This document shows, piece by piece, positions 3,001 through 32,600 of a stretch of DNA of 64,000 nt. The position numbers were made by a program, and so were the translations under genes. The DNA comes from Ascidiella aspersa (Eukaryota): the NCBI GenBank assembly GCA_963924565.1, contig OZ004613.1, forward strand, positions 4,898,001 through 4,962,000, read 5' to 3'. Under the pieces are notes generated by a model. It ran no database searches, was not told where the DNA came from, and saw nothing but the letters and a program-made list of their open reading frames with translations. Each line of letters opens with the position of its first letter. Within the stretch, counting starts at the first letter, position 1.

Positions 3001-4942
3001 AGGGAAAATAATAATTATTACCTTTTCAGCTTGGACCACTGCATTATTTGTTTAGTAACTGATATTAATAAAACGTAGCGTGCTAGTCAGTTTGTTTCCA
3101 AAAACATTTGTAATGTAACGCGGCGGTTAACAAAGTAAATTTTACAACCCCAATGTAATCGAAAAATTTTATTTTTAAATGCCGGAACTTCAATAAAATA
3201 AAATCAATTTCAAAGTCATTCTTTGAGAAAAAGACAAAACAAAGGGGCAAAACTACTCAATTAACTGCTTGTTTGTTACCAAAAATTGCCTAAAACACGT
3301 AAATTGTAAAGGTTAATTTTTCAAACATATAGAGATTCAAAACATTTTACCACCAAAAGAAAATAAAAAACTCAATTGCTGTGTGTTGTAGCGAATTTTA
3401 AATTTATCCTGCAGCTGGTAAAAAGTTACGTGGCATTAAACCCGATAGATTATTTTTAGTTTATCCGCGAAATAAAATTGTCCCTAAAGCACCATGTCAG
3501 TTCTTGGAATTATGTAAATTCGGCAAATATGTTGTCAAAACAATATTGGAAGGGGCTATTCACCCGGACAACAAAGTAGTTCAAATCGATATACAATTGC
3601 TAACGGGTGCCAGCGTAAAGGAGTGATCTGTTCAAATAGTCTAGCCTATAGGCGCCTCCTGAGCTTATTTACACGGCTAATAAAGTAATTTAAATAGATT
3701 TCTGAAAAAATATTAAAATTATGAAAAACTTGGAAAATCAAACAGCACTCAAACCCAAACGCTAACCCTAAACCTAATAAAAATAAAAAAATAAGCACAT
3801 ATTAGTGCAAGCGTAAAATGCGATCCGGTTAAAAAACGACTTCCAACAATATTTGTCTTTGTTGTGTATGTTGCAGAAATATCCATCTGAAGCGGAGTTT
3901 GTTGTTGTCAAAAGAGTTCATGCAATTGTCCAACCAACTAACATTCAGAACCCAATTATAAACCAATTACCGTTTTGTACTTGTGGTGTTTAGATTGCGT
4001 AGCTGGGAACATTAAGGCATATGGACAATGCAGTTGCCGCGGGGCTAATAGGTTAGTTAGTCGGTTGTTTATGTGGTAAGGTATTTGTATTTACCAATGT
4101 GACAACCTAATTTAACAGGCATTTGAAATTAGCACTATAAGTAAAAATGTATATTATTTATTGAGTGGTTTTACTTGGTTATGGGTAATAATGGCAAAGA
4201 GAATAAAACTATGAAATTAAATCAAAATGAGTTTGCATTTTAATTTAAATGCGTATTTTTTTAGATGGATGAAACCTAATTTACTAATCAATTGTATAAG
4301 ATAATTAAAAGGAAATATATTTGCACTATAAAAGTATTATAAATGCAATTAATTTGCATTTTATATAAATTAAATCTATTCTAAGATATAAGAAACCTAA
4401 TTTAGTTGGCAATTGCACAAGATAATAAAAAAGAAATATTTGCGTAGGAATGGAATCATTAGTACTTATGTTCGAAAGAAATCTGTTATCAGTATACAAT
4501 TGAAAATCAATCGCCTTGTCTGTGGTGGATAATTTAGATTTTATACAATAAGTTAAAATTGAAAACGTTAAATAAATAATTGTCAATTTATGAGATGTTT
4601 TGGAAACAAACTTATTTCGCAATGTAATTCATTAAGGTCGACTTGCTATTGTCTTGTTACATTTGTTTTTAACAGTACATCCTAACTTTATTTCGAAAGC
4701 ATTTCTTTATGATTTTTTAGATAAATATGAACAAAAATACATCTTTGTGGATGATGTCGAATTCGACACCACAGGTTGTTGAAGTTACTGCTGGCTGTTT
4801 TAGTTTTTAAAAGCTGTTTTAAAGGGGATTCCAAATCAATTTTTAGAATTCTTAGATCCAGAATGATATGCTCACCGCCCTAAAGGCCCCCAATTTCAAA
4901 AGTCATATTTTTAAGGATTTTATCATTTGTTTAACTGCAGAA

Positions 4943-7900
4943 ATGGCATTTAGTCTTGTCTTCTTCGGGGTTATCTGCTGTATAACACGAGTACCAGCTT
5001 TACAATGCGTCCTTGGGAACCGGACCAACTCTGGGGGGCAGAGTGTGGTATCCACTACAACAGGGAACTGTCAACCGAACCAGCATTGCTTTAGAATGGA
5101 GACTGTGCAGAATCCGCCAGGTAAGTGGTGAATTTGCTGTTTGTCAGATTGGAACGCACAATAAGACCCACAAAGTTGCCCGAAAAAACAATAACAAACG
5201 GCCGAACTATACCGCTTGGAACTGTAGGTAGGTGATATGGACGATCAGGGGCCATCGGTCTGGCATCGGCTCTTTTAGTGTCAATGTTTGGACGCCCTAG
5301 TTTGACCGGCGCCGCTGTTTTTGGCCCCTGATTTATACCCTTATTTTGGGTTAGTTGGACGTAATGGTAAGAGTCTAAATTGGTTTAGGGTTAAAATTAT
5401 TAGGAAAGTTAGTGATGTACATACGGGTGAGGTTTGGTAAAGTGTTGTATAGGACTGATTTTGCGTGGATTTAGGACTTATTCTGATTTAGATTACGACC
5501 ATTAGGTATTAGTGCACTTTGGTCTTATTTCGAAATGTATTTTATTCCGACGTTGATTTCTTATTTAGGTCTTATGGCCGGAGTCCGATTAAATATGTTG
5601 AAGATTTTATTGTTCGTCAGTCGACGCATTAACCAAAAAATATTTTCAGGTTTAATCACCTGAAAAACGTTTCTACGATCTGATCGGTTTGTTAGCGCAT
5701 ATAAAACTCTTATAAACTGTTGCTACCAGTCATAGTAATAATAGTCAAAAAACAGCTCCTCTGGTAGTTGTAATTGTTAACCAACCTTTAGGCAACCTAA
5801 TTTAAATCGCCTTTGTCAGGGGACTAAAAAAAACTGTTGTTTACATACTAACAAGTTGGCGTTCTCGTTGAGATTTTTTGACAAATGTTAATAAATGTAA
5901 AGATTTTTTTGTTGTTGTAAGTTATTACCGTGGTACCTATGCTTTAAATATTTTATACATTTGTTTCTTAATAAGCAAAATTGCATCACAGCTTAAAGCT
6001 AATTTTTAGAGAAATCGGCCCCAGTGTTGCCTTTACTAAATTAATTTGACATTGTGAGACAAAAACAAATCTAATTCGATTTATCATAACAAACGCGAAA
6101 AAAATCTAAGCAAAAAGTAGCATGTCATAAAAATAAATATTTGGAAAGGTGTGTAATATAAAACGTTAGGAAACAGTCAGATCTGTTTACTTACTAAAAA
6201 AATGAACCCCAGTTATTTGATTTTGGTGAAAACCATCCTTAAAACTAAGTTAAAACTAGTCACGTCATTTGATAACAAAACCTTCAGTGCACACTGCAGA
6301 CTGATGTAGGTTTCACAACATTGTATTTCTATTCAGGTGGAGTTACTTTCCAAGTAGTGAGCCTGATGTGTCAACCCTCAGCAATATGCGGCAATATAAA
6401 CGCACTGCTCTGCCAGCCTTTGATGAGACAGCGACCAAACAAAGACAGTCAACTTCGTGTGACGTAAGCAACTCTAACAGTGACGTTTACCCGGTCTGTT
6501 TGACGTCATCGAAATACGTCAGTGCAGTGTTGCTCTATCTTTTTTCGCGGCGACACAAACGAGTAAAGGAACAGTTCTAAGCGTATATGTAAAATAGCGA
6601 AATTTAAAGAGTGAATCGACTCAGTTCACTTCATTGAACATTTCGTAAGTCTATTGTGAATAAAACACAAATCAGACGAAAGCATAAAAAATCCAATTTT
6701 AATTAAAATGAGCCATGTTCTAGCATTGTATCCGACTTTTCCTAAATTTCGGAGCAATATTAAAACAATTTTAATAAATATATATAATTGTAAACTTTTA
6801 AATAGTATAATCGGCAACACAACAAAATCCAAAAGTCACTAATTTAAACACTATTTTTAGAAACACCATTTTTAAACTAAGTGCTATCTATAAAATTGTT
6901 ATTTTTTCAGTGTAATATGCTATTTGCAAACTGAATGTAAAACAAAACTCTTAACATGCACATATTCGTTCTAAAGCAAACAACAAGAAATCTTATGTTT
7001 TAAACTGATTAAACCTAGTCCTTTAAGGGGTCGCGTAATATCTTAATAGGTACATAAAAAGGGGTCGCAGAGTGAAAAGTTTTGAAAGCCCTGAAAGAGC
7101 AAGCTTACATTTCAGTTCAAGTTGTGTACTCTGTGTCCATAGCAAGATTTTAACTTTCGCGTGTTTCGGCAGAGCGTTGTAGTTAATGCAACTTTGTAGC
7201 CGCATATTCAGTTTCCAAATTACCAGGAAACTTTCGGCCGTCAACAAAGCGTGTTGTGTTTCATGGCTGGGTAGTTGAAGCGTTGCAAAGTTAAAACGGA
7301 TGCTTTTCATCTAATCATAAAACGATTACCTAATAAGAATATCAAACCCCATACAGGAGTAGGGCATCCCTTGAAGATGTTGAAAATGAATACAGAGTTA
7401 TTCGAAAAGTTCAAAATGCCACCTGCTTCTGTATGGGCTTTGATATTCTTGTTACGTCTTACTACAATTTCCAACCATAATGCTTTAAAACTATATTAGG
7501 TTTTCATTGTAGCTTTGATTTATCTTTGATTGAACGCTGTGTGTTAAGCTAACCTTGTATTTGTTCGATACAGAGCTTGCGAAGTAAGTTGCTGTAGTAG
7601 GGACTTGTGCAACATCATGACGATCGCACAACAAGCCGCGTCACCTGGGAACGAAGTGGTTCTTGCGACACCAGAAACAACCACACAAACCACCAGAAAT
7701 GAAGGGACCACGGCATCAGAAGCAACCACACAAACGATCAGAAATGACGGGACCACGGCACCAGAAACAACTACACAAACGACCAGAAATGACGGGACCA
7801 CGACACCAGAAACAATCACCACAGTACAAGCAACCAGTGATGATATTACACCATTACAGACCAATTCTGTACCACTAATTGGAAATCATTCACTAACAAC

Positions 7901-8246
7901 CAATGCTGTTCAACCACCAATCAATTTGCCACCACAAAATGGTAATGTTGGTCTATCAACAACCAATATTGGCCTACCACCAGCAAATCAGTCACCACAA
8001 AACAGAAATGGTCCACCACCGACCAATTTATCACCACAAAATGGTAACGGTGAGCAAACATCTAGCAGAGTCCCTGTACCACATTCACATGGAAACGTGT
8101 TATTGTCGTTTAACTCTTATCTTTTTAATCCTTACACCAACACCATATCCACGACCAGCAAGGCACTGGTTTCGTCCTACCAGGATGGTATTTCAGTCGC
8201 TATCATGGTGCTTATTGGAATGTTTTTCTGTGTTATTATGATGTAG
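4943..8246 (+). CDS. Ly6/uPAR (three-finger) domain protein with mucin-like stalk, predicted GPI-anchored, paralog 1 (~325 aa; exons 4943-5120, 6337-6463, 7574-8246)
   Basis: Signal peptide MAFSLVFFGVICCITRVPA then LQC. GT-AG introns of phase 1 and 2 join in frame. 10 Cys in the mature domain ending ACEVSCCSRDLCN (LU signature CCxxDxCN). T/P-rich stalk with 15-aa repeats (PETTTQTTRNxGTT). Hydrophobic C-terminus with no tail. Confidence 0.88.
7331..7483. mobile_element. Family A MITE copy
   Basis: Same aagaatatcaaa.cccataca / tgtatgggctttgatattctt inverted arms. Confidence 0.75.
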
Positions 8247-10106
8247 GAAACAGTTGTATGTGGATACTCGTGTCGCATAGTAAACTCGTGCTGAAAAATG
8301 AGCAACCTGCATGACGAGCACAGTAACTCAATGAAGTATATGTGCTAAATGCTTATTATATTCATTAATTTAATTTTTATGTTGACATGGTATTTGTATA
8401 TAACTTTTTACTGACATAAAATCGTATTAAATTGTGTGTATACTTTTGGGTAGTAAGTGTTTTGCTTACATATTGTGCCACGCTCAAAACTTTAGGCTAC
8501 TGTTGGCATGGTAATATGATGATAAACCATTCATTGTTCAGAAATACTGACAAAAGTTTTATGTCATACCTCGGCAAAATCAAACAAAGCTTCCGGTTCA
8601 TTATAACGACAATACAATCGTTGACACACCCCAGCAAAACGTGTATGTGAAAGCAATTTGTCACCGGTTATTAACAATTCCACGTAACCCCTGTACATTC
8701 ATGGTCTTTCGTGTTTTAAACCGCGACAGGCATTCTGTTTTCGATCACTTCTGGTGTGCGCCTTTCGTACCAAGAATTTTCAAGGATCTCGGCTACGAAA
8801 GCGCTAAAACTTTCAACAGACGCGATTCTGTAAAACGCGATAACACAAGCATAACGCTCTAAATGCGGTGGTTGAGTGTGATGAATATGTGCAAACAGAT
8901 GGCCTGCTTTTTATTTAAAGGCTGTCTTACAAATGTAGGAAAGGGAGTTTTCTATTTGAAAGCAGGAAAATTAACTATGTTAATTAATTATTTGGGCTAA
9001 GGAAACTAAATCAAGCCAGTGTTAATGATTTGACTTATGTGTAATTAAATCACTTTTTAAGTGACTTGACTTGACTTAAGTATTTTTTGTAAATAACTTG
9101 GGTGTAAATGAAGTGTTTTCATTAACCTAATTTTTTACAATTTGATTATTTCGCCAAATTAGGCCTATTTCATTTTTTTTTTCTGTTTACTTTATTTTCA
9201 GTTGAGCTCGTAACGACGATTTTATTTATTTTAATAGTTTATTACCGTTTAATTTTGATGACAAGAACTTGACTTGGAACTGACTTTCTCTAATTATGAT
9301 TTTACTGGGGCTTGACTTATTATATTTAATATAAAACCCCCAATAAACAGCATGGCAATAATAAAAGTTCTGTTCATATATGCCAGCATTATTTATTGAC
9401 ATTTTATCGTTGTTACATTTTGAAGCAGGACTAATGACGTATTTTACGTAAATTTAAGGGACGGATAGCTTAAAATAATAGCAAAGCGTTAGAGTTAAAA
9501 TTAAAAAGCAGGATAATTTAACTTTTTGTGTTTTTTTATGGCTGAACTTAAGTTTTTACAACTATTTGAAAGTTTTCTATAAAGCATTTGTTAACAGCAC
9601 TATAAAAAATATTTCACCGTGTTATGCTTTTTCTGTATATCAGTATTTTAACAAACCTAGCTTATAGTATGAAATGCAAATACTGAAACAACATTGTCTT
9701 GTTGGTGAGGCACAATTTTAGCAGACTGAAAGCGATCTGTAGCTTAAGCCTTAAGGTAGGCCCTAAAGACTTCAGAATGAAGTTGGAAGTTGTTATGACC
9801 GGAAGTTGGACGAACAGATAACCAATAAATATGTATATATCGATATATAGAAAATCTGGAGTGAACGTTACAATCGAACAATACATTTAAATAATAAAAC
9901 ATACTGTAATAAGAGGATTTGATTTAAAAATTAAAATCAAATCTTCAGTTTTCGGTGTCTATAACGGGCATTTTATTTTTATTTATTTCGAGCATGATAT
10001 AAGAATATTTTAAGCAATTTATTCCACCTAAGTAACACTGCTATTAAATGTTCATTTGTAGCTAGAACGTAATCACAACTTTGCGAAAACATTATAGACC
10101 ACAAAA

Positions 10107-11711
10107 ATGAAATTCAAAGTTGCTGTTTTGTTTCTGGCTTCTTCCTTTGTGTGACGCAACAATCAGATGTTACGACACTTCGGTGTTCGCCTGGGGAGAC
10201 CAAGCTCCGGTTGCCCAGGGAACTGACTTTTGTGAATTAGGATCCAACTGCTTAAAAATCGACTATTCTGGATACGGACAGAACATCACTGGAGGTGAAC
10301 CGATGCGAGTTAGTGTGAAATAATCTTACTTTTAGCCGCTATATAAGGCAATCACCAAATGTCATTTTAATCCTGGCGACTCTAGCACGAAAAAGCGTTC
10401 ATAAAAAACGCATTTCAAAAACCTACAAACACACAAACACGCGAAATACAAACACACAACGTGCAAAGTCACAAACGCACTAACGCACCAGCGCACAAAC
10501 GCACAAAAACACAAACTCACAAACGCACAAACTCACAAACGCACAAACATAACAAACGCACAATCTCACAAACGCGTAAACTCACAAACGCACAAACTCA
10601 CAAATTCACAAACTCAAACGTACTTACGCACAAACTCACAAACTCACAAACGCACAAACGCACAAACGCACAAACATAACAAACGCACAAACGCACAAAC
10701 GCACAAACGCACAAACGCACAAACGCACAAACGCACAAACGCACAAACGCACAAACGCACAAACGCACAAACGCACAAACTCACAAATTTACAAACTAAC
10801 AAAAGAAAAAAACGCAGAAACGCAAAACTCATAAACACTTTACTTTCAGAACGTGCCGCTCTATTCACCGGTTACCTTGAAATATGTTTGCCTGAAAACC
10901 AAACGTGTGGAGACTTTGCTGAATGCACAGGTTCAACCATGGACTACGACACCCCATACTTAAACAACGTAACGTAAGATAATTGATTTGTATTAAATCT
11001 TAAAATACACAAATATCAGACGACATAAAAAAATTATAATAAGTAAAATATGACTGTTACTAATTTTATTTTAGGGGGAAGTTCGTATGCCAAGTTTAGA
11101 ATATTTTAGGTTGCAAAATTCATGCAGGTTTGGAAAATTAAATCAGAACTAAAATTAGCGCAAGCAATTGACAAATTTGCCAAGTTTAGAATTAGTATCT
11201 CACCTTAATATGTCAAAGTTTGGGACAACTAAAATCATTTTGTTGTCTAAATCCATAGGCTAGGTATTCCCCATTTGACCAAAAAATACGGGTTATCCGG
11301 TTAAACCTTGTTTTTAGATCTTGCAATATTAACATTTGCTGCAACGGATCGGATTACTGCAACCGACCTGACAATACAACTTCAACAACTCCAAACACTT
11401 TCGTAACTACACAGACATCTGATATGCCAGTTGCCACTTCCATGCCAGTTGCCACTTCTATGTCAGTTGCCACTTCTATGTCAGGTGCCAATAACATGAC
11501 AGGTGCTACTAATATACCAGGTGCCACTTCCATGGCGGTTGTCACTAATCTGTCAGTGGCAACTGCTAATGTGTCAGTGACGCCCAACAGCATGCCAGGC
11601 GCCAGTGTGAATTTAACGACAAAACCGGGAGGTTCGGCTGCACACTTGAACCACTTGGGATTGATTGCTACACTTTCTGTAGCAGCTGCTGCAGTTTGTT
11701 ACTTACGTTAG
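10107..11711 (+). CDS. Ly6/uPAR three-finger + mucin stalk + GPI-type tail, paralog 2 (exons 10107-10294, 10850-10973, 11318-11711); frameshift near the start (pseudogene or sequence error)
   Basis: Same phase-1/phase-2 exon structure. IRCYD...FCELGSNCLKID | ICLPENQTCGDFAEC | SCNINICCNGSDYCN; MPVATS repeats; hydrophobic end LGLIATLSVAAAAVCYLR. The ATG at 10107 is 1 nt out of frame with the rest. Confidence 0.8.
10420..10830. repeat. 7-bp microsatellite (ACAAACG)n in intron 1 of Ly6 paralog 2
   Basis: Pure core at 10680-10777 with degenerate flanks. Confidence 0.93.
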
Positions 11712-13936
11712 CACTATAAACGCATTTTAATTTACAAATTAAAACCATGGAAAGTTTACCTTGGCCAACTATAGTTCCGTAATTATCTTTGACACAATTA
11801 ATGGTTTCTTGAGGCTAACTGCTGGTATCAAATTAATTTCGATGTTTTATGACGATTAATTAAACAACTAATTAAGTTAGTGGAATAAAAAGTCAAAGTA
11901 ATTTAAACTCAGATTCTTACGTCCACTGTTTAAGTTTTTTGTGTCAAAGGTCATTTATTGTACAGAAAAGTCATTCAATCTTTGAAGTTTATATTATTCA
12001 TCCATTGCGTCGTATAAACCAGAAGTCTCTTAAAATGTTCACGCTGTATGTACACGTGTTTAACTGTATTGCTTGTGTTAAGGTGACAAATGACGCAAAC
12101 GACAGCGGCTAATGGATGTATTTAATCGTATTGTGCTTTTCTAACTTGGGAGATATGAATTATTTTGGTCTCCCTTGTCTGGGCATTTATTTCAGCGATG
12201 TACTTTAAACGCATTCACTAGCATTTAAAAAAAGAAAAACTTATGCGAACCATCCGCACAGCGATTAATATATACGACTCTAATTAAAGGCTGTAAAATA
12301 CATAAAAAATGCTAATAGCCACATTTTTAGTTCTTATTATATTGGTCAAAATTAAGCGTAGCCTATAAGTCTTAATACAAGTCCAGAGTTGCATGAGTCA
12401 AGTCCCAGTCAAGGTATTTTTAGAGCTAGTCAACTTCAAGTTAAGTCAAGTCATTGATATAAAAGTAAATCGTTAAACTAATAAAATTGGTAAACTTGCC
12501 GCATACAGATTAAAGTGGTATTGTACGACAATGAAGAAGGTAATAGAAATTCTTGTTAAACAAAAAGGGCTATTTAAAACATTTCAAACTTTCCTTTGTT
12601 GGCTGCGTTTTGTGGTTTATTTACGGTATGTTAAACATTAATATTTCGAATGTATAGAAAACTTCCTAAATTTTATCACTTATCATTTATCCGTTTAATA
12701 GGAAAATACTAGAGATAAACTATACTTGGAATTTGTTGATTTAGACCGAAGTATGAAGAAGTAAACATTATAATCGCAATTTAATCATACATTAGGGTTG
12801 TCTCGGTCGCAATGAATTGATCAGTTGAAACAAGTAATTAGATTAGAGTTGAGCACCTTAACGATGAAATATAGCGGCCAATTTAGTTGCCTGGACATGT
12901 CAGGTGACCTCCTTTCAAGCGCATTCATCGCTACCAAGATAACGTCGAGATATCTATTCAAAGACTGTTGTCGTTTTTCGCACGTTGCTGGATTAGCAGT
13001 TCAACATATTTCAACTAATAGGCCGCTTATGCATTTGTAAAGAGAGGAGCGGTTAAATTAAAGGAAAATAATTTTTTAAGTTACGCAGCACCAAAAAGAA
13101 AAGTTTTATTTTAACAGGCCATGTCCTTTTTTATTTCTTTTTTCCTACTAAGATTTCAGTTGCATATTTGTGCACGACTTGAACGATATCCGCAGGTTTC
13201 CAAAGGTTACTTGTTTAAGACGTCCCATTGTGACGTAACTTTGTGACGTCATGTCTAATTTTTATGGTTCTGGTCAGAAAGCTCTTCTAATTTTAGCTCT
13301 AAAAGACACAAGAAAGTAGCCGACGATAGACGAGTTGCTTGAAAAGTAGAAAATATTGCTGTTGTCAGTCCAACTCGTGCGCAAATATGGGTCTAAATAT
13401 ATTCAAGGAGGCAAAAGACTTCATCTAAAAATATTAATACAAAACTTAAAGTTTATGTTTAAGCTGTTGTACACATTACGTTAGTTTTAAGCTCAGCTGC
13501 TACAAATAATGGCAAAATAGAACTATATGGTCATCTGATTAGAATTTCTTTAAAAATTCTGAATAGAATTTCTTTGAAATTTAAGAGAACAAAAAACAAC
13601 CTACACCATATTACAATTAGCTGTCTTAAAGAAGACAATAAGTAGCAAAACAGGCTTAAAGTACCAAAATCGCTGCAATACTCATTGTGCAAATGATAAC
13701 ACAAAATTTGAAGAAAATTGAATGTGAAAGGTAGTCAAAACAAACGTTTATTTCAAACAAGTGGTAAAAATTCAGTTTATTTTTAAGACTACTAAAAGTC
13801 GATTATAATTCTCTCTAAACTAAACGAGTGTAGCGCTTTATACTATTTATATTGTAAATGAGATTTTGCTGTCGCAGAGGAGTAGTGAAGAATTGTTTAA
13901 AACTCTTTTTTACCGGCTCTGGTGAAATCGCCGAAA

Positions 13937-16077
13937 ATGAGAAATCCCTTTTACTTGACATGGGCGGTCGTTCTAGCTCTTGGCTTGACAGGATCCGAAG
14001 CGTTGGAGTGTTTGGGGGGTACCAATGCGACCGGTGCAATTGACACCACCTCCGCTTACGTGCATTTCGAGAACCTTACGACCCTGAATTGTGGATCTGG
14101 TGAAAGCTGTGGACGCCTGGAGGCAGACGGGACATTCCTGAACGGTTGGTGGCGAGCGTATGGCAGTGTTGTAATCACTCAAGTCTATGACTTGACTTAA
14201 CTGCACTTAAGATACTATTTTTAAATGACTCAATCTAAGTACAATGTAATAAGAATATCAAAGCCCATACAGAAGTAGGTTACCTACTTCTGTATGGGCT
14301 TTGATATTGTTATTACGTCTTACTACAACCTCCAACCATTATTCTCTAAAGATCTAAGTATACACTTTCAGTAAGTTACTTTTTTCAAATGACTTGAGTT
14401 TTTTTGGGCAAAATTACTTGACATGACTTAGGTCCTTTACACAAATGACTTGGGTTGAAATGAAGTGTTTTTCTTAAATTTTATTTAAAATTGTGCTAAT
14501 TATTATCCACACTTTTGCACAGAAAACAATTTACTTGCTGAATTTTGCATGCTTGGTATTTTTGCAATACGAATCGACTTGGCCAAATTTTTAGAGAAAA
14601 ATGACTTGATTTTGACTTTAGTAGCCACACATTTTTCATTTTTGTTTATTGTTCGAAATTCAAGTTGACCCCAAGTATAATTTTTGCGTATTAAAGATAT
14701 GCCCTTATATTCAGTTAATGGTTCTTATCTACAGCTGTATTTGCGTCATAACTAGGGTTATTGATAACCTTTATCTTTTTCAGCCCATTTTGACATATTT
14801 GCCAACCACTGCAAACAACGCTATTGTTTCAGGTACAAATGCTATCCAGTTTACCAGTTACATCGGACTGTGCGTGACCACCTCGCAATGCGAAGAAGTC
14901 GTTACTCTCTGCTCGCAGCTAAAGGACATTCTGCCTGAGAATGAGAATATAACGTACGTTTCTTGTTCTAATAGTGTCTGCGTTTATGGATGTTGCATTT
15001 TAGAGACAAATAACATTTTATGGCAAACAAAACACACTTGTGTAATACAATGATTGGTGTTTAAATATGTTATTAACGTTGAAAATTAATCTTAAAAAAC
15101 ATAAGCGTGAACAAATACAGCCTTTAGGGTTTTGTTAGTAGAAATGTTTACTCATAAAGTCATTTCTCTTTTAATGGTAAACTTGTTTTTAATGTTTTTC
15201 TTTCTAAATTTATTAAAGTGGTGAACCATGTCTAATATTTTACTTGGCAACTATTGGATAATATTTTACGTTCAGGTTTTGTCAAGCCCAATGTTGCAAC
15301 ACTAGCAGCTGTAATGTTGAGCCTGTAAATACAGCAACAACAACAATCGCAATAGGCACAACTGAAGTAGCAACAACTACAGCAACAGCAACAGCAACGG
15401 CAACAGCAACAGCAACAGCAACGGCAACAGCAACAGCAACAACAGAAACGCTTGGAGGAGCTACAACTACTACGGAAAGCAGTGTAACTGCAGTAGGGTC
15501 GATTGAAAACACAACAACAGAAAAAGTCGCATCACTAACAACAATAAATGGCGTGGCTTTAATAACAGAAGAAGCAACAGCAACAACACAAGCTACAACT
15601 GGAACAGCAACAGAAGAAGCTACTACAGTAGAATCAGCAACAAACACAGATGGTCTAAGTGTACAAACAGACGCAGCAACTACAGAAGTGACAACAGGCA
15701 CAGCAACAATAGCAACTGAATCAGCTACAAATACAAATGTAGCAGCTACAGAAACAACAGCATCAACTGAAACCGAATCAACAGCAACAAACGAGTTACA
15801 GTCAACCACCGCTGCATCCGACCAATCAACAAGCAACTCATTTCAAGCGCAAGCAAGCACAAGTTCTGTCACAACTGCAGTAACTAACAGCTCTACAGCG
15901 ACCAGTTCAAGTAACACCAGCACAGCAGCAGTTTCTTCCACTTTAACTAGCACAACTTCAACTGCTGCCACTAAATCTCAAGCTCCTGTCACTACCACAA
16001 GCTCCTGCAAGCGTCCGCAGCTGTGTGGTATCTTGTGGCAGTTTGCAGTCGCCATTTTTGTTGCCATCGTTTTCTAA
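13937..16077 (+). CDS. Ly6/uPAR three-finger + long Thr/Ala mucin stalk + GPI-type tail, paralog 3 (~376 aa; exons 13937-14144, 14833-14953, 15276-16077)
   Basis: Signal peptide MRNPFYLTWAVVLALGLTGSEA then LEC. Phase 1 and 2 introns. FCQAQCCNTSSCN motif; ~230 aa T/A/S/E stalk including (AT)n; C-terminus GILWQFAVAIFVAIVF*. Confidence 0.88.
14246..14340. mobile_element. Family A derivative: near-perfect ~35-bp-arm hairpin
   Basis: gtaataagaatatcaaagcccatacagaagtaggt-t-acctacttctgtatgggctttgatattgttattac. Confidence 0.8.
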
Positions 16078-17098: not shown

Positions 17099-20000
17099 TT
17101 AATGAGAACCGGAAGGCAATCGAGATGCACTTTCATAACTTGGTAACTTAAGCTTGTGTTCACCATCTTCTAACGAAGCACGTTTCTGCTCCGATTCTGC
17201 CAAATTCCGCTCGCAACCAGTTGGAACCGGTTCTCCCACCAGCTCGTTGTAAACAGGAGGGGAGTCGGAATAACGGTGAGAGCTCAAGTAATCAGCATCC
17301 CAGTGTGGATAATTCTGGATGCTTTGCCCCTGATCCAAAGCCCCAGCTTCTAAGGTGTTGTGAAACACTCGCTCCAGCCATTCCTCAGGCTCTGTAAGCG
17401 CAAAAGAAAATCGTTCAATTGTTCCTTGGCACTTACTTAACCCAAAAGTGGTGTAAATAAATGATCAAAATGATGGTGAACTGTTAATTATTTCGCCACT
17501 GATTGTAAACTAGCACACGTGTGTTTGTTGTTTGATTTTCTTTGGGGAAACATATATCACAAAGAGGAAGTGAAAAACACTGATCTGTTATATAGTGTTA
17601 GGTGATGTACAGGCAAAGCTTAAAGGCCTATTGATTCCACTTGAAAAATGACTCAGGCCAGTTACACTTGGATTCGGGTAGGTCAACTTCAATATTTCAT
17701 TTAAAAATTTTCAGAGGTACATGTATGACAGTTTGAATTCATTCCTTGCTGTTACATGGATTATGATAGCATTTTTAAATATTTATTGACCGACTATATC
17801 GGTTAATATATTATTGCCTTATTCAATGTTAGCTTACTAGGAGTATTTTTAATTTTTTTTGTATAATTCGTTTTTTTACCGGGAGGAATGTTAAGACCCT
17901 TAATTGTGGTACTGAAGTATTTATGTTTCAAAATGATTTCGCTAACACAAGTTCATGAACACAATTTTATCAACCTTAAGTATGGGTAGGCCTACTATAT
18001 TTCAAATAGTAACGTATTTCATAGTAATAAATTGAAATAGTCTTGCTTGAAAAAGTTTTCGTTTATTTAGTTATTGCAGCCCTGCAAACTAAAAAATCGA
18101 ATAGGGGCTCGACGGAGTCGGTTTGTTTTGCTGCAGTCGTTCTTGAGTAAGACTATACGTAAAACTACCGAGTCCCGAGTTCAACGTACGCATCACCAAA
18201 ATTTCGAAACTGATAAGGCCACAAACTGCAAATTTTAAAAGTGCAATAGAATAGTGTAATATTTTCCAACCATGGATTGCGGGTTGATTAAATACATGAC
18301 AACCTCTGAGTTGATTGCTGAATATGTCCACCCTATTTTAATTACCTAAATGTGTGACATACAGACTGTAGAGTCGGAACTGGATTCGAGACTCGACGAT
18401 CGTATTTTATGGCGGGACTCGAACTCGGGAGTTGGACACTGGTTGTTTTCAATCGACTCCGCAACCCTTCCCAGAACTCACCGTTATCGAGACACATCTT
18501 GAACCCGACAATAATCGTCACCATACCGGCCACCAAAAGGACAAGACCACCAAACCAGCTGAGAAGGCTGGCAACTACAATGGCTCCAACTATAGTCACA
18601 CCACCCGAAGACATCATAACGAAAGCTGCTAATCTGCACTTGCGCTGCCTCCTTCGTCCGTTCTGGATCCTATATATAAGTGAGAGAAGTGAGGGAAGAT
18701 TATTTGATAAGTGAGAGAAATAAGATAAGTGAGAGAAAATAGAGGAATTAGAACAGATCCCATATATAATCGAGAAAAGTGTGTTTGTTTTGGGGATACG
18801 ATCAAGGTTTGAGTCATAACTAGTTTCGCAGAATTTCAGGGGCATTAAAATAAGATACATTAAAGCCTATGCGGTTCAATAAGTAATCTGAGTTTTGTTA
18901 AAAGCAGCAACCAGAGAAAAAATAAAAATGATCACAAATACGTATTCAAATATTTAATATATTAAGCGGTTCTATTTCATTTTAGTGTCCACTAGTTACT
19001 GTCCCACTTAAAGTTCTGTCAGTTTTAAAGGTTTAATTTATCTAAGTTTTAAACCCACTATAGTTTCATAAACATTTCAAGATAGACACATTGTATTAAA
19101 CCGTAAATCATTACTTAAGTTCTTATATCAATTTGATATCGTATCGGCACCGATACTACTTGGATCGGTATTATCGGGCGTCAATGAACGCAACCACAAA
19201 CTTACCATTCAACCCCCTTAATCTTACCTTTATAGCAATTGTGGCCCGCAAACCTATTCAGTAATCAGCCCAGGGGTAAAAGGCTTTTGAGTAGAAACCC
19301 AGCATAACACTCCTAGTATAGCAGTGCATAGTTTTGGAGAACAGATCATGGTTTGAGTCGCAATTAGTAATGCAGAATTTCAAGCTAAGTCTTTCACGAG
19401 GTGCAAAGAAAGATTGATTGTTCTAAGCGTTATCTTTGGGGGTAATTTTCCTAACACTAATATACAGCTCTTAATTACACAGAATATCTGGTTCTTAATA
19501 GCACAGTGATAATATCTATATATAAGTGAGAGAAGTGTGTTTGTTTTTCAGATAAGATCGAGGTATCGGATCGATTGCGATACTTTTTAGCGAATTATCG
19601 GACCTCTGCAGCTGTCTTACGCAAAAGCAAAAGATAAACACCACAAGTTCTTACCTGGATGACGCCTGCGTTCGGTTCCGCATCAGTGAATGCGCCCTGC
19701 GTTCCTGACGTTCGGGAGGCACCAGGTTACGCGAGAAGTTGCGCTCGGTAACCGGCGATACGACTGGTAAACTAGAACTCCTCGGCCTGGTTTGACTGAA
19801 ATCCTGCTCGTCCTGATGGTTGTGCTGGTTGTGCTGGTTGTACTGGTTGTGCTGCTGGTTCCGCTGGTTGTTATGCTGGTTCTGATGGTTGTTGTACTGG
19901 TGCTGCTGGTTGTGCTGCTGGTTCCGCTGGTTGTTGTGCTGGTTCTGCTGGTTGTTGTACTGGTGCTGCTGGTTGTTGTACTGGTTCTGCTGGTTGTTGT

Positions 20001-20175
20001 ACTGGTCCTGCTGGTTGTTGTACTGGTTCTGCTGGTTGTTGGATTGGTTCTGCTGGTTGTTGTACTGGTTCTGCTGGTTGTTGCACTGGTTCCGCTGGTT
20101 GTTGTATTGGCTGGTGCTGGATTCTGATTGAGTTTCGGCGCTTCTTATTGCTTGGGCGCCCAGAGCGAAAATCAT
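17099..20175 (-). CDS. Uncharacterised membrane-hairpin protein with N-terminal Q/N-rich heptad repeat and C-terminal PY motifs (~333 aa; exons 20175-19655, 18669-18482, 17391-17099)
   Basis: Donors AG|GTAAGA (19655) and G|GTGAGT (18482), acceptors TATAG| and TTACAG|; phases 2 and 1 join in frame (1002 nt total). Basic RRRQRKCR precedes two hydrophobic helices. SPPVY and LPSY occur in the tail. Confidence 0.78.
19815..20108 (-). repeat. 21-bp coding tandem repeat (~14 units) encoding NNQQNQY-like heptads
   Basis: Plus strand (ctggttctgctggttgttgta)n with variants. Confidence 0.92.
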
Positions 20176-22379
20176 GTTGAAGAACTTGAGTCAAATCTTT
20201 CACGTGCAGCCAAAGGGCATAATTTTAGGCGACTGGATTTTTAAGAAACAGTTTGAGCGTTTCGTTCTAATCTTCAGCACAGTCATGAACAGAATTCCGC
20301 TTTTTACAGTTAAGATACCTACTGTTTAAAACATAGCTCTGCCATTGTTTTTTACAAATATGTGAAAATCTTGAAAGAAATTGAGACCCACAAAATCTTA
20401 GCATTTACATGCAAAAATAAATAAAATGAATTATCGAATGTTGTTTCATTTTTTAAGGCTTTTATTTGCATTTCTAAAAGCAGAAACTTTTTATTAAATC
20501 GATATCCCATCAATTATTCTCCTAAATCGATGTCCTTTTTAAAATTGCAATGTACGATAGGATACGATTAGCTTGCCGACAGGAATTGTCCGGATTAAGG
20601 ATGTTAAACTTTAGAAACTTTCACCAATAACTTGCACTTAGCGAGCATAATCATAAAAAATTGCCAACCTGAAGTTTAAATCTTTAGAACCGACTTAAAG
20701 TTTGATTAATTATATTGATCCTTTTTCTAGAGTTTTATAAATTTTACAAGACGTCTTAATTTTTCTAGAACTAAAGCAAAAGCAGAGATAGTGAAGTACT
20801 ACTACAGTTTAGCGTTTTAACACTAAAGAGCCGTTTAGTGTATTTACTACGTCTTTGCGATAATATTTTAGTGAGCGACTATACGCAATATCCGATTCTA
20901 CGTTTCCTCTTTATAACGTTTCATCCCTTTATACGTCACAATAAGCACAACAGCATTTTGTTTTGAAAGTAAACAACTGAAATCGAAAAAAAGCTCGCAC
21001 CAGACAAGCGATCAATTATTTTGTGCCTTGCTATAAACATTTAACAAGGCAGTAGCAGAAAATTGCTCCAATTTAAGAGTTCTATAGGTATTTTTCAGCT
21101 GGCGACTTTCATAAGGTCATTTAATGCTAAACGTGGCGGCGTAACTGGCAGGCCAAACGAGCTGGAAATGGTTTATTTCGGGCATACCAGTATTTCACTT
21201 TAATTGCTTGCAATCTTTTGTTACATAGTTTTATTTAGGAAACTAGTATTTCTCTTGGATTTATTGCAATTTTTAATACATAGACTTCATAGTTGCACAT
21301 CTTGAAAGGCGTGTGGCATCAATAAACTAAGAAAAATAACATAACTAATCTATGTTTTATGTTTTTTTTTGCCCACAGCGTTTTTTGTTTAAACCTTCCG
21401 TCCATTCAATTTTATGTTGGTCAAGTCCACAATTGGTAGACAAAAATGAAAAAAAAACGAGTAACCAGTTTAGAAGTGCTGATTTAAAGGGCGGCAAATT
21501 TTCATTATTTTTTTTCCATTTTGTTGCCGCATACCACATAGTGATTTTTGCAGTCACTGGTTACCACATAATACAATGTAACTCACAAAAACTTGCTTAC
21601 AGTCAAAGACATTTAAACATACCAAGAAAACACTTTGTTCGCAAGTTAGGCACCACTTACTTTGAGAAACCAGTCACCTTAGAAATTGTGTTTTATTTTT
21701 TTTGTATGTTTATTTCGGGTGGTAATGTTGCTAAACTAAACGAGACGTTATGTTGCTGGAATGCTTCGCAGTTCGCGCTAGTGATTTAATAGAATAATTT
21801 ATAATTTGCTGTTTCGTGCAATACATATAAAATCACAAGGGTAGGCAGGTTTTTCATCACATCGTTTTGATTCTTTAAATCAGCACCGATGTAATGTTAC
21901 ATGCGAGGGTAGACTAGTTTAATGATGGGTTCAAATGAATAAACATTCCTGTTTTATCAAATACGAGGCTTAGCTGCCTTTTTTCAATTTGTTGGATATA
22001 ATTCTTCGAATAAAGTAGCCACAAAAAACACACATCAAAGAGCCACATGTGGTTTGTAAGCTGCAGTTTTCCTACATCTGTAATATCAGCATAGTTAGTT
22101 CCTCTATTCGGTAGACAAAAAGTTTGTGAATGCATTGGATTTTATTAGAAAGAAGATATAAAAGCGAGAGAGCACTACGCCTGCAATTTGAAGAGAATAT
22201 TGTGATCGAATTTAGAATTATTTCAAGGACGCGAAAATATACAAAACAGCCTTTTAAGGACAGCTGAATTGCTTTTTAGACAACTCAGCACCAAAATATA
22301 ATAAACCAAACCATATTTGCTGTGTAACAAAAATAGTTCAACTTGTTATCACGTGACATTATTAACTGTCCGCCTCACT

Positions 22380-22612
22380 TTCTCGATGACGTCACGTTTT
22401 TGCTCAGATGAAGATTACGTCATAGATACGTGACGACAGCAAAAGAGAGATACAGGCCGAGATGCCGATATTCGCGTTAATACTACATTATGCAATAGAA
22501 GCTAAAGCAAGAGATTAAAGAAGATTACGTCATCTAGTTTGACGTCAAGAGTATAGTGACGTCATAATTTTTTACACGGTACGGAAGTCGATGTCAGATC
22601 CGCCTTCGGAAA
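22380..22612. promoter_or_regulatory. Cluster of CRE/ATF-like sites, candidate promoter/enhancer of the Q/N-hairpin gene
   Basis: TGACGTCA at 22387, 22540, 22557; TTACGTCA at 22415, 22524; about 2.2 kb upstream of the - strand ATG at 20175. Confidence 0.35.
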
Positions 22613-26600: not shown

Positions 26601-29600
26601 GCATGTGGCGCCGTTCAGGCAGTACGCCCCCCCTTCGTAGTCGCAGAAAGCTTCACAGCTGCGATTTAACACGGAGGTTTTGTAAGTTTCGAAATACTCC
26701 GTCGGTTTTAGTAGCACAGAGAAAAAGTGGTTGAAACTTTAATTCCGCATGTAACTTTATCATCATTTATTTTTGATCTCGATGTTGGCGTCAAGTTTGG
26801 CTTACGACAGCTTATTGTGAAAAAGTGTATGTTTTGGAAAATATTTTAATGCCTTGAGGTTTCACACAATCTTTTTTCGTGTATTCTAAGCCATTTAACA
26901 AAAAGTTTTACAGCTGCGATTGAACAAGAAGATTTTGTAAGTTTTTAAATGCCGTCGGTTTTACTAGAACAGAGAAGAGATTGTTTAAGGGTTTCATGTT
27001 CAAAGTGCGATTTTTTCCCCTGGTATCAACCACGTTTCAGCAGTGTTTTGCACACTTGTTTATCAGTTAAAAAATATTTTTTTTATTTCTTGTATAACTT
27101 TGTTCTGTACTGTAGGTTTACACTGTATGCCGGAAAATTAATAAAATGATTTGTTTTATAGCAAGCACAAAGAGTTGTGTGTTTCAGTTAACTCGGCCTC
27201 TTTAAGTAAGTTAGGTAATTCTTTGCGCTCTTGATGAAATAATGTTGAACAAATTTTACAAGAGTGTATATTCAAAATGTGATAGAAACGGAAAAATTCC
27301 TTAAAATCGAATGTTGTATGTGATTACAAAAACAGTCGCCGGTTGAAATTAACGTCACAATAAAAAGCGGTTATTCCCCGCTCACCTGCGCCCACTAGTG
27401 GCGACACTGGTCTGGTTGAGATCTCTGAATCCTGCCTTACAAGCGCAGCTGAATCCTGGGTGACTCGTCGTACTCACACAAGTCGAGTTGGTCGAACAGT
27501 CGTTGTACTCGGACGAGGAACACTCGTCGTAATCTGGAAGCAACGCGTTTCAATATAAATATACGCTGAATAGTTTAAGGCTTTCTGTTGGATCACAGGT
27601 TGGAATCCTAAGTTATAAGTTATTTAAACAATCGGAAGCCTTCGACAGATCAACCGAATCTGTCGAAATACAAGTAAGGCAGGCCAAAAAAGCAACTTAA
27701 GCCTATCCACGTGACTCAAATGTTAAAAATGTAACGTTTAAAATAACGTTTGACACCAAACAAAGAATTTTCTTTCGTAAATTAATTGAATTTCTTTCCC
27801 ATGTTTAATGATTTAAGCGAACAGGTGTGTATTGTGTTGTATTTTTCCGGCACGGCCAAAAGTTTACAATACACATTCTCAACACCAGTCGCACAATGCG
27901 TGACGCAGTTGAAGTAGAAAAATGGGCTCGCTTTTTAAGATGCTGAAACTCATATACTTTGGAATTCAATTTCCAAAGTATTATTATATTATGCTCAGTT
28001 TAAATAAAATTTATTTTGACGTCAAAGATATTGTGCAAACTATATCGAGATTTGCTGACAGAAAAATATACTTTTGAATAATATATCTGTCCAGAAATAA
28101 TTTTCAAATAATTTTTTTCAGAACCTGTTTTTTTTAACAAATACTAATATAATATAAAAAGGCTGAACAATTCCAATATTTTGCAGCATAATGGTTGGAG
28201 GTTGGAGCAAGACGTAATAGGAATATCAAAGCCCATAAAGAGATATCGAATAAGTCTTTAAAATGAAAAGACTTATTCGAAACGTTCAAAATGCAACCTA
28301 CTTTTGTATGGGCTTTGATATTCTTATTATGTAATACCAATATTAATTAGCTGAAAAACAAACAACATTTAATAGTTGAGCCTCAAAAACGAACAAACCT
28401 TCAACAGTTATTCCGATCACTTTGTAGGTGCTGAGTGCCGGGAGAGTTCCAGCGTTTACAGCGCTGTTAACACTTGCCGCAACATCAGCCGTGTCGTTTA
28501 CGTTCGCAAGTTGAACGTTGCTCGTCGCGACGATGCTACCGCTCGCATAATTCACCGAAATCTCTTGCACCACTGTGATGTCAATACTGGAGAACAACGC
28601 ATTCAGCTGCGGGAAAACATAAAGCGTGTTTAATTGTGGATGATGCTACTACAGTCAGGCCTGCGAAGTCGGTTAAAAACTACACGAGTCCGACTCCAGC
28701 TAAAAAAAAAAAACCGAGTCCCGAGTCCTGAGTCCGACTCCAAAGTCAGACACTTGCCAAACTAATGAACCGACCTGAGTCCGACTCCGGCTAAATGTGC
28801 GATTTCGTCGAGTCCGACTGTCACTCTACAGCCTGTATTTCCCTCATTTAGGAAACTTAAATAAGGTGCATAATCAGCAAAATCCACTCCTGGAAGTGTT
28901 CTAACTCATCCACTCACAAAACATGGTAGGAAAAATACTCTACAACATGCTATTCTACTTTACAATTTTTACTTTTCGGCCTTAACAGTTTCGAAATTTG
29001 GTACTGCGCATGTCGGACTAGTGACCCGGCAGTCAGAATCGTGTAGCAGTTGCTATACCCTTCAATAAAATACTACTTGTGACCACTTTTTGAAACGTAG
29101 AGGACTATGACCAAGTGGAGTCTAACCATTTGAAACACGCAAACAAAACAAACGACATAAACTTTAGTCTCAACCCATTTTTTTTGTTACTTGTTCCACA
29201 TCTTGAATTCTTTGACGCACTTAGAATTTTTCAATAGTTTATTTACCGAAAAAGAATGACCAACTACACAGGAATAAAAAAAATCATTATAGTGTTATGA
29301 AAACAGGTGAACACATATGTCAGGCCCTAATAACAAGCAAAATTTTAACCCATTTACGTCGACCATGCTTGTTTTGTAACGACACATACGACTTGTTACG
29401 TCACAGACGATTTCTTATACTTACGAATGCTCTGTTTGTTGTGCCGAAGCTCGAAACAGTGCTCTGGGTGTAAGTGTAGTTGTATCTTACTATCACTGTG
29501 GCGATTAGGGAGTCTAGAAAAAATGACAAGGCAGTAAGTTTTAAGTTAAGCTGAAAAATATGTGGTTTACACTTTAAGGTCGCCATTTATGTACTGAAAT

Positions 29601-32600
29601 ATATGTAGCCTTATCAAGCATTACTCCACTACTTATGACGTCACATGTCTGGGAGAGTAAGGCATGACAAGGCTACAGTTTCATATTCAATGGTTTGTAT
29701 CGGTTAAAAGTGTGCTTTACAATAAACACTTTTAAACATAGTTCGTTGTACCATACTCGCCTAGTTTCCTATAACCTAGATTTCCTTTTGATACGTTTTA
29801 CACATTTGCAAATAATTTTATTCTGTGTATGGTGAAAAATCATATGCTTACTTATAGCAAGTAAGCATATGAGCCTTGCATGCAAAATAAACTTTAGACA
29901 ACTCATAATTTAATGGTATTTAAAAATCAAAATAATGATGTACCACAGTTTTTCTTTTATCCTGATTTCGATTAAACAACCTAATGTTAATACCTGATTC
30001 ATCTAATATTTCTAAAAATATACCGCGTAAAAAAGCAAATGGTAGTGCCCAAACGAATATGGGATGCTTTCTGTCAGTTTAGAAATTACTGCTGCAATAC
30101 GAAATATACTCACTCTTGCATGTGCTTCCAACAAGGCCAGTGAACTGGGGACAAGTGATAGACGGATCAGTGGTTGGTCCTGTGGTTGGTCCTGTGGTTG
30201 GTCCTGTGGTTGGTCCTGTGGTTGGTCCTGTGGTTGGTCCTGCGGTTGGACCTGTGGTTGGTCCTGTGGTTGGTCCTGCGGTTGGACCTGCGGTTGGACC
30301 TGTGGTTGGACCTGTGGTTGGTGCTGTGGTTGGTGCTGTGGTTGGTGCTGTGGTTGGTGCTGTGGTTGGTGCTGTGGTTGGTGCTGTGGTTGGTGATGTG
30401 GTTGGTGCTGTGGTTGGTGCTGTGGTTGGTGCTGTTGTCACTGTTAACACAAAGTTGCCGTTAGTCTGTAAGGTTTATTATTGCATGATACCTAAACCAT
30501 AATGTCCCTGATTTTCAGGAGAATTTTGAGTTAAGTTCAGCAACAAACAGACAATTAAATCATTTCTAATTGGATCATACAAGCAGAGTACTGTTCAATT
30601 GGATGAAAATCAAAAAATTCTAAATATAAGCATTTGTTGCTTATATATTTGCGTCTAATGCACAACAAAAAGCTGTTAAAGCCGAATACTATGATTTACA
30701 AACAGACTTGTTAAAGAAACAATTGCCTAAATAGATTACATTCAGTAAGTAAAACAGTGGTAAAACAATATTTGGGCAGGGAAGTCGAAGTTGATAGGAC
30801 TTACCAGCAGTCTCGCAGCGATCACCTTCGAACCCGGTCGCACAGCTGCAAGTGGGGTTGACGGTGCTGACATCAGGGGTGCACGTGCCACCGTTCAAGC
30901 AGTAAGCAGAACCGCCGAAAGTACATTGGTCTTCGCAACTAAACGCAACATACTTGGAGGTTAGTTTTGTACTTTGCAAAACTCGTTTACTTATCAATGT
31001 TGTAGGAGTGACATAGCAACTGTTTTATTACAGATGAATGTCATAAAACTGAGTACACGTGATCACTGGTAGTCCTTACCTGACATTTTTATTTAGCACA
31101 ACAGATTGTAACTTACAAAAAATGGGAAAATCTCAAGGCGATTGCTGTACGATTTTGCCTATTTTAAGAGTTTAAACACTAGACCTATTTTAACTATAGG
31201 TGCCTGTTATTATAAACGCTAAGTTGGACGCAACTGCGGCATCCATAGGCGCTATTTGATTTACAAAGCTTCATACTACTATAGTTTAAAAAATATTGAA
31301 TATCGCAAAAAGTTAAACAGAAGATTGCAGTTTTTCTAGTATTAATCAAAAACATTTGATTTAATTGCTGCTAATTACCGCCCATATTAATATACCAAAC
31401 GACGTAATCACTATGCCAAAATAAGCATATTAGACGAAATTTAAACGCCCAAAGGTAATTGTTGTCCAAGTTAATTGGTAAAAAATTACTTTAGTGTGAA
31501 GTTTGAGAATTACCGCCGTAAATAATCAAGGTTGGTTAATAAAAGCAACCGTACGCGTTAACTATGTGCCCTGCATACTGACACACTACATGATAAGATT
31601 ATTTTACTTCGTTCCCGGATTGGAAGTGTTGGTGTCCCTGTAGATGGGTTTGCACTGGCAAGTGAAGCCCGGGTGTAAAGTGCTGTCGGTGCAAGTCGCG
31701 TTCACAGAACAATCGTTCATTGTTACGTTAAGACACTCATCCAAGTCTGAAAATTAAAAGGATTTGTTTTGTTAAATCACGCGGTTGTTTTATGCCAATT
31801 ACATCTGCTTTGATTGCGGGTTAAGACTGGAATTGAAAAAGTAACTGCGGTCCAAAATAACAATCTGAACGATTGCTTTAAGAACTTAATCTGTCTTGGT
31901 CGCTTTAACACAGGGCTTGTTAAACTTTTTAAGACAGACCCTTATATATATAATTTTTTTTTTTGGGGGGGGAGGGGGTGGGGAAGTCGTAAACCTGAGT
32001 TAAAGTTGAACATAGATGACTTCAAAAATTGACGTCAAAAACCAAACAGACCTAAGAAATTTGGTCAAAATATGAAACTTTAATGAAGTCTAAATACAAT
32101 CAAGGAGAAGCGTTTTATTTTAAAGAATATTCATTTAGGAAATTTATTCTTTTTATAATAAACAAAAAATACGGGTTTGTTAACCGACTTCGAAATTTTC
32201 CAAAACACGTATGTATAATGAGTGACTAAATTATATGACACCCTTTGAATGAGTGAATGGCTGTTTATTAATCCTATTTATAAGTAAATGGGTAAAATAC
32301 AGGGCTGTAGAGTCGGAGCCGGAATTGCAATTTATTTTTGCAGGACTTTGCTTGTTTTAACTGACTTCGCAGCGATGCTTCAAACACGATTGTCGTGATT
32401 TTTCACGAAACTAACAAAGAATATTACGATTACTACGTACTGTTAATGGCGACTGTAGTGACGTTTTGAAGCTCAGTCAAGTTGCTGGTAGCGATGACAT
32501 TTTGCACTTCGGTGGCGGTGTCATTCACGTTGCTGACGTTAGCTAGTTGAACGTCTGTCGTTGCTATAACACTTCCACTGGTGAAGGTTATGGTGACGAT

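Follow-up and report, generated by a model that had tools for sequence, protein, structure and literature searches.

A minus-strand gene of Ascidiella aspersa predicted to encode a small membrane protein with two PY motifs and a minisatellite-encoded Q/N block

A three-exon gene on the minus strand

We analysed a stretch of 64,000 nucleotides (nt) from the tunicate Ascidiella aspersa (contig OZ004613.1, positions 4,898,001 to 4,962,000 of the forward strand; hereafter the window, which lies on contig C7 of the 308.6 Mb genome scanned here) and found that three minus-strand exons, at 20175-19655, 18669-18482 and 17391-17099, join into 1002 nt that encode 333 amino acids and a stop. The predicted product combines a block of glutamine and asparagine (the Q/N block), a hydrophobic run and a tail with two PY motifs, which could recruit a ubiquitin ligase of the NEDD4 family. 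The same exon joins and product had been proposed in an initial annotation made without database searches; they were reproduced from the DNA, and at that level the three-exon model is confirmed, with junctions that we infer from the DNA.

All features of the gene given below lie on the minus strand. The coding part of exon 1 (19655..20175) starts with the ATG at 20175 and a 22-residue leader, continues through the Q/N block and a linker rich in Arg, Ser and Pro, and ends at a phase-2 donor. Exon 2 (18482..18669) carries a basic patch and the hydrophobic run, with Cys185 and Cys233 on either side, and exon 3 (17099..17391) encodes an acidic tail, presumably disordered, that contains the two PY motifs, Lys306, Lys316 and Lys318, and ends at the stop codon TAA. 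The only cysteines of the product are residues 31, 185, 233 and 296.

The donors of exons 1 and 2 each match the consensus at 8 of 9 positions and rank first among those listed (n=3 for exon 1, n=4 for exon 2), the pyrimidine tract is richest at both chosen acceptors among the AGs listed (n=5 and n=11), and the phases are compatible across both introns. The GC content is 50-58% in the exon segments (51-58% in exon 1) as compared to 33-36% in the introns and flanks. In exon 1, the proposed frame is the only one open from the ATG to the donor, the rivals being stopped at 19873, 19774 and 19729 or at 20174, 20147 and 19685. Codon usage, scored against 4,135 codons from long frames of the same genome, ranked the proposed frame first among the six in each of five segments, namely the leader, the repeat, the linker and exons 2 and 3, a result that is partly circular since the rival frames are penalised by their stops; for one repeat unit, it favours the Q/N reading about 7-fold over the Pro frame. 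The C- and G-ending codons of the repeat, considered as a possible anomaly, are ordinary in this genome, where AAC, TAC and CAC are used more often than their synonyms and CAG is as frequent as CAA.

The comparison of alleles, made between two DNA-type contig sets and covering 40 of the 171 differences and 12 of the 21 indels, gave modest support to the Q/N frame. Eight of the listed differences are coding, and five of these are silent; in exon 3, the silent share is 4/6. The difference at 20119 is synonymous in the Q/N frame but gives its Pro-rich rival a stop, the sole exonic indel among the 12 listed is an in-frame loss of 9 nt inside the repeat, and the reading frames are intact in the second individual. 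Neither set has a joint where the splice junctions are proposed. One contig set is nearly uncovered at 20152-20398, including the start codon, and such a hole proves nothing.

Upstream of the start, a short in-frame open reading frame (ORF) at 20286-20200, with ATGs at 20286 and 20220, reaches its stop just before the ATG at 20175, and a good-quality acceptor-like site at 20369 could serve cis- or trans-splicing. An extension of exon 2 to a donor at 18346 was rejected, as its phase does not fit exon 3 and it passes through a high-copy repeat. This element occupies about 17930..18440 of intron 2 (no strand assigned; boundaries approximate, from summed contig depth), where the depth is 1,876-14,631 vs about 70-110 in most other bins, and the frame that reads through behind the exon-2 donor is therefore a chance one. 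The element resembles a miniature inverted-repeat transposable element or a short interspersed element, in that it has numerous loose ends and motifs of the GACTCGG type, and a similar motif cluster is present at about 28700-28800.

The Q/N block: a minisatellite of prion-like composition

The Q/N block spans residues 23-121, and 75 of its 99 residues are Q or N (39 Q and 36 N, together with 10 H and 8 Y). It is encoded by a 21-nt minisatellite detected by Tandem Repeats Finder at 19813..20109, of which only about nine copies are ordered (19918-20110, 91% match), the 3' remainder being decayed; the heptad unit NNQQNQY occurs in three exact copies. The initial annotation had described about 100 residues of ordered heptads, and while its length estimate agrees with ours, the order is confined to these nine or so copies. 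All 10 of the 10 genome matches to the 21-nt unit, allowing up to 2 mismatches, are at this locus, and the idea that the repeat is a mobile element was dropped on this ground.

By composition, the block is clearly prion-like, as had been claimed. A PAPA-like score reached 0.096 (cutoff 0.05), and 63 Q and N fall within 80 residues, where 30 is the usual cutoff. The prion composition score was 112 bits per 60 residues, as compared to a cutoff of 50 bits; the log-odds scale and this cutoff come from PMC3654983, and the scoring was done without a disorder filter and is distinct from PLAAC itself.

The likeness to yeast Sup35 is another matter. Neither GNNQQNY nor NNQQNY occurs in the 333-residue product, and a sequence search of the PDB returned no match at E<=1. 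The pentamer NNQQN, common to the Sup35 peptide and the block, is present in 14 of the 140 arrangements of such a heptad, and because 52% of 20,000 shuffled versions of the block contain it too, the likeness is not above chance and the label “Sup35-like” describes a coincidence. In published work, prion propensity follows composition and not primary sequence (PMC5402983), compositional prion classifiers yield false positives (PMC5402983, PMC3654983), and Q/N-rich proteins are able to stay soluble in cells (PMC11537047). A literature search for GNNQQNY together with scrambling found no paper.

Within the window, 3 of the 230 stop-to-stop frames exceed 50 bits. Apart from the block's own, these belong to the Thr-rich mucin repeats at 30012-30474 and 36900-38888 (minus strand), whose shadow frames reach 55 and 53 bits, which is a caution for calling frames in repeats.

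A second Q/N heptad, of the NNQRNQQ type, is present at C3:4459300-4467260, with a score of 95 bits and a PAPA-like score of about 0. The gene around it is unrelated, and we take it to be TDRD3-like. The frame was rejected as a paralogue, since UBA and RGG-rich exons precede it and no hydrophobic or PY exon is found among the GC-rich frames listed there; it is an independent expansion in what is likely an RNA-granule protein. With a minisatellite unique to its locus and another Q/N heptad in an unrelated gene, the proposal that the block is an amyloid or condensate scaffold is not supported.

AlphaFold run without an alignment modelled residues 19-126 as one helix, mostly with a predicted local distance difference test (pLDDT) score >90. 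Confident single helices are a common AlphaFold default on Q-rich low-complexity sequence, and the model may reflect this default or may hint at a polar coiled coil. According to PMC7997880, coiled coils can drive the amyloid conversion of Q-rich prion-like domains.

Membrane segment, tail motifs and competing readings

In exon 2, a basic patch (residues 179-186, 18656-18633) precedes the hydrophobic run (residues 187-233, 18632-18492), whose charge-free stretch at residues 187-230 accommodates two non-overlapping 21-mers with Kyte–Doolittle (KD) means of 2.1 and 2.25. The net charge is +7 ahead of the run and -4 behind it. A basic flank marks the cytosolic side under the positive-inside rule, and the N-side is therefore predicted to be cytosolic. 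Hydropathy and charge thus support the membrane protein with a cytosolic N-side that the initial annotation had drawn, and a two-pass or re-entrant hairpin would be the simplest way to place the tail in the cytosol as well. Its “two adjacent hydrophobic helices” fit the run as two 21-mers but not the AlphaFold model of exon 2, which shows one helix of 38 residues in this part.

The linker sequence RPRSSSLP (residues 130-137, 19765..19788) joins RxRxxS, the consensus of Akt and other basophilic kinases, with an overlapping RSxSxP, the mode-1 14-3-3 motif, and makes Ser135 a candidate site for both. The tail contains PPVYNEL (17240..17260; PPVY at residue 281), which fits the extended PY consensus PPxYxxL (PMC2582799), and LPSYESA (17126..17146; LPSY at residue 319), which fits the L/PPxY consensus (PMC2824488) and has Lys306, Lys316 and Lys318 beside it, the last two nearest. 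Two L/PPxY motifs arose in 0.15% of shuffles (p=0.0015), PPxYxxL in 0.27% (p=0.0027) and the combined RxRSxSxP in 0.4% of linker shuffles (p=0.004), p-values that are optimistic as the motifs were picked after the fact. The phosphorylation motif noted earlier is thus rare in its combined form, whereas RxRxxS/T alone is ordinary (42% of shuffles). WW and HECT matches are adjacent and on the same strand at four loci of the genome (C3:30.06 Mb, C1:7.16-7.18 Mb, C1:8.59 Mb and C3:32.62-32.64 Mb), so that the predicted recruitment of a NEDD4-family ligase by the PY-bearing tail has candidate partners. The two PY motifs and RxRSxSxP are the best-supported features of the product and suggest an adaptor or substrate of NEDD4-family ligases, laid out like Sna3 or barttin.

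The search for relatives was made with single exons as queries, which is less sensitive than a search with the whole protein. The gene appears as single-copy: exons 2 and 3 match only their own locus in the genome, and the three examined of the seven exon-1 matches were the locus itself and two others. Against longer proteins, none of the 382 candidates for exon 2, none of the 74 for exon 3 and not the single one for the exon-1 linker was retained. A phmmer search of 1.84 billion representatives with exon 2 gave two matches at E<=0.001, which were long, repetitive proteins of low identity and were rejected as chance. An Atlas search (best 0.84, low recognition) gave nothing usable, its blanks signifying neither absence nor novelty; none of 180 stretches from JGI metagenomes was confirmed; and Foldseek with the exon-2 model found no match. 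Pfam gave nothing for the four exon-level queries at any cutoff, CYSTM included, apart from a neurensin match at E=6.9 with exon 2 plus read-through, and genome scans with PF15462, PF15345 and PF14927 had matches elsewhere or below cutoff and none at the locus. The best explanation is a gene that is probably fast-evolving or restricted to a lineage within tunicates.

With odds a little better than even, we favour a small tunicate membrane protein, an adaptor or substrate of NEDD4-family ligases in the layout of Sna3 or barttin, that carries a young Q/N expansion as a passenger. If expressed as modelled, its hydrophobic run would cross the membrane twice or dip into it, with N-side and tail both cytosolic, and the PPxYxxL and LPxY motifs would bind the WW domains of a NEDD4-family HECT ligase. 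The ligase would ubiquitinate the protein (Lys306, Lys316 or Lys318), a membrane partner, or both, and direct them to endosomes and lysosomes, as with Sna3 or barttin, and phosphorylation of Ser135 may bring 14-3-3 control. The Q/N block, a minisatellite expansion that is presumably young, would be tolerated in a disordered cytosolic head; it may aggregate in vitro, yet would be dispensable for ligase recruitment and unselected as amyloid. On these terms, the gene adds another to the orphan membrane adaptors with PY motifs, here with an insertion of low complexity; it is useful for annotation and illustrates how a 21-nt minisatellite can create a predictor-positive “prion domain” in a single step.

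Several points weigh against this. Three measures of composition put the block well above the prion cutoffs, and its period of exactly seven residues, in which one position holds Tyr or a replacement for it, is what a structure under selection might show. Shuffling leaves the 74 codons of exon 1 outside the repeat open in 6% of cases, so that openness alone is weak evidence; the silent share among repeat copies is higher in the Pro frame (4/9) than in the Q/N frame (2/9); and the allelic indel tally is weak, as about 1.6 of the 12 would be expected in exons anyway. In the single-sequence AlphaFold model, exon 2 forms a short helix and a continuous 38-residue helix with no hairpin (predicted template modelling score 0.39), and a cytosolic end is not usually acidic, as the flank on the C-side is. 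Finally, the exon-level searches found no orthologue.

The strongest of the alternatives, though unlikely, is that the Q/N block is a functional module for self-assembly (coiled coil, condensate or amyloid) that clusters the PY tails and activates a NEDD4-family ligase, gated by phospho-Ser135 and 14-3-3, which would give the proposal of the initial annotation a concrete mechanism. Its composition (112 bits, PAPA-like 0.096, 63 Q and N in 80 residues), the heptad period and the confident helix over residues 19-126 would fit such a module, and so would the published observations that coiled coils can precede amyloid in Q-rich domains (PMC7997880), that polymerised or aggregated PY proteins activate Nedd4 ligases (PMC5892558) and that the prion-forming Lsb2 is under ubiquitination control (PMC6767215). 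Against it, the match to the Sup35 motif is at chance level, the block consists of a simple minisatellite repeat whose length differs between individuals by the 9-nt deletion, and the helix is of a kind that AlphaFold commonly gives by default on Q-rich sequence. Moreover, compositional classifiers give false positives (PMC5402983, PMC3654983), and polymerisation is replaceable by membrane tethering (PMC5892558). A complete chain of events, in which the heptad domain polymerises on the membrane (from helical bundle to amyloid, or as a condensate), arrays the PY tails and switches the ligase under the same phospho-Ser135/14-3-3 gate, is somewhat less probable again. If the block did assemble and control a ligase, the gene would be a natural test of PY clustering as an activator of Nedd4 ligases, and would show that in an animal the expansion of a repeat can give rise to a Q/N assembly switch tethered to the membrane; a recently expanded minisatellite would then have built a prion-type switch into the same chain as a ubiquitin-ligase adaptor.

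We give a similarly small chance to a real membrane and PY protein that lacks the block, with translation starting at Met165 (ATG 19683) or with exon 1 replaced or entered downstream, the repeat then being 5' untranslated region or intron. The ATG at 19683 is in frame, the upstream in-frame ATGs at 20286 and 20220 meet a stop before 20175, and the repeat strand is so poor in T that the Q/N, Pro-rich and Thr-rich frames are all almost open, whatever its function. However, the base at -3 is A at ATG 20175 and C at ATG 19683, the GC content climbs to 52% from the leader onward vs 33% upstream, leader, repeat and linker each score highest in the proposed frame, and RxRSxSxP sits upstream of Met165 in the same frame.

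Still more doubtful is a different topology, either one long membrane helix with an outside tail, in which the PY motifs would be idle, or a signal peptide in the first ten residues followed by an extracellular Q/N stalk. The single 38-residue AlphaFold helix and the acidic C-flank would suit the former; for the latter speak a mildly hydrophobic N-terminus (KD 2.3 over residues 1-7), three N-glycosylation sequons in the head and neighbouring genes that resemble surface proteins on Thr-rich mucin stalks. On the other hand, an uncharged run of 44 residues is long for a single pass and has the +7 charge directly ahead of it, in a tail outside the cytosol a pair of PY motifs this well formed would arise by chance at about 0.15%, and the N-terminal patch is shorter and weaker than a neighbour's signal peptide, whose 7-residue windows reach 3.0. 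Least probable of all is a locus not expressed as modelled, being a decaying gene or having the repeat read as PVQQPAE or STTTSRT in a different transcript, which would agree with the lack of relatives detected by sequence, the all-A-ending codons of the PVQQPAE frame and its silent share of 4/9 vs 2/9. Against this, both rival frames lack an ATG; PVQQPAE meets three stops ahead of the donor and gains one more from the allele, and the Thr frame stops at 19685. The 7-fold codon preference (from 4,135 codons) favours Q/N over Pro, the phase is kept at both introns, and a second individual has the frames intact as well.

Neighbourhood and comparison with known systems

On one side of the gene is a cluster of small plus-strand genes, Cys-rich and with Thr stalks, and on the other a minus-strand gene that resembles an EGF membrane mucin. 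The cluster consists of three tandem genes (7548-8246, 11259-11711 and 13937-16077), each with a CC...CN motif in the last exon, a Thr/Ser-rich stalk and a hydrophobic C-terminus, and in the third a signal peptide is clearly recognisable at 13937. Exon by exon, these genes had no Pfam match; presumably they are akin to glycosylphosphatidylinositol-anchored Ly6/three-finger proteins on mucin stalks. The EGF mucin-like gene runs from about 31024 to 22572 on the minus strand, its exons having been read by eye and the last appearing to end near 22572; two exons that encode transmembrane (TM) segments (about 25685-25603 and 23629-23467) start in the same phase, and are possibly mutually exclusive anchors or parts of two genes. 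Elsewhere, the genome has one cellulose synthase GT2 exon, at C5:19610700-19614090, followed 3 kb downstream by a GH6 match in the same orientation, as in tunicate-type CesA, the fusion of cellulose synthase and GH6 being a tunicate hallmark. At C9:13040783, a short-period satellite has three open frames of 389-457 codons with identical translation and is probably non-coding.

Among known proteins, TMEM51 and neurensin/TMEM74 have a layout similar to that of the 333-residue product, as does barttin, and we know of no Q/N head in any of them. These families are alike in layout only, and their profiles PF15462, PF15345 and PF14927 have no match at the locus. Barttin, an animal membrane protein with two TMs, is under the control of Nedd4-2 via a PY motif (PMC7314819). 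Yeast Sna3p has two TMs and a cytoplasmic C-terminal PY motif that binds Rsp5, is ubiquitinated at a tail lysine, and is sorted to the endosome and vacuole (PMC2171029). Sna3p shares the predicted small two-TM, C-terminal PY layout, while the protein here shows no sequence likeness to it (Pfam negative) and differs in having two PY motifs, a 186-residue head and the Q/N block.

For the head, the closest case is the yeast CYSTM protein Ybr016w, which is membrane-anchored, has five perfect GYNQQ repeats and shows prion-like behaviour (PMC2804304, PMC4006944). By prediction, the two share a membrane anchor and a cytoplasmic prion-like head; in contrast, CYSTM is a C-terminal Cys-rich module with no tail, whereas the present product has no Cys patch, a central hydrophobic run and a PY tail. 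The Sup35 prion domain is alike in its Q/N/Y-rich composition and the pentamer NNQQN, but the block here has no GNNQQNY and no Gly, and is 10% His.

With respect to function, an array of PY motifs, whether on a membrane or on a polymer, activates Nedd4 ligases, as for Ndfip and Dvl2-WWP2; membrane tethering alone suffices for this PY-dependent activation, and polymerisation or aggregation of PY-bearing proteins also achieves it (PMC5892558). The PY motifs of Ndfip are N-terminal and Dvl2 polymerises via a folded DIX domain, and no sequence link to either was found. Lsb2, a prion-forming yeast protein, is controlled by ubiquitination, to which its prion state is coupled (PMC6767215); it is not an integral membrane protein, and it too has no sequence link that we found.

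Among the literature matches listed from a limited library, no paper joined Q/N, two TMs and PY in one chain. Both halves are already in print, namely two TMs with a PY motif in Sna3 and barttin and a membrane-anchored Q/N/Y head in Ybr016w, and what had been put forward as a new system is better described as a new combination of known parts.

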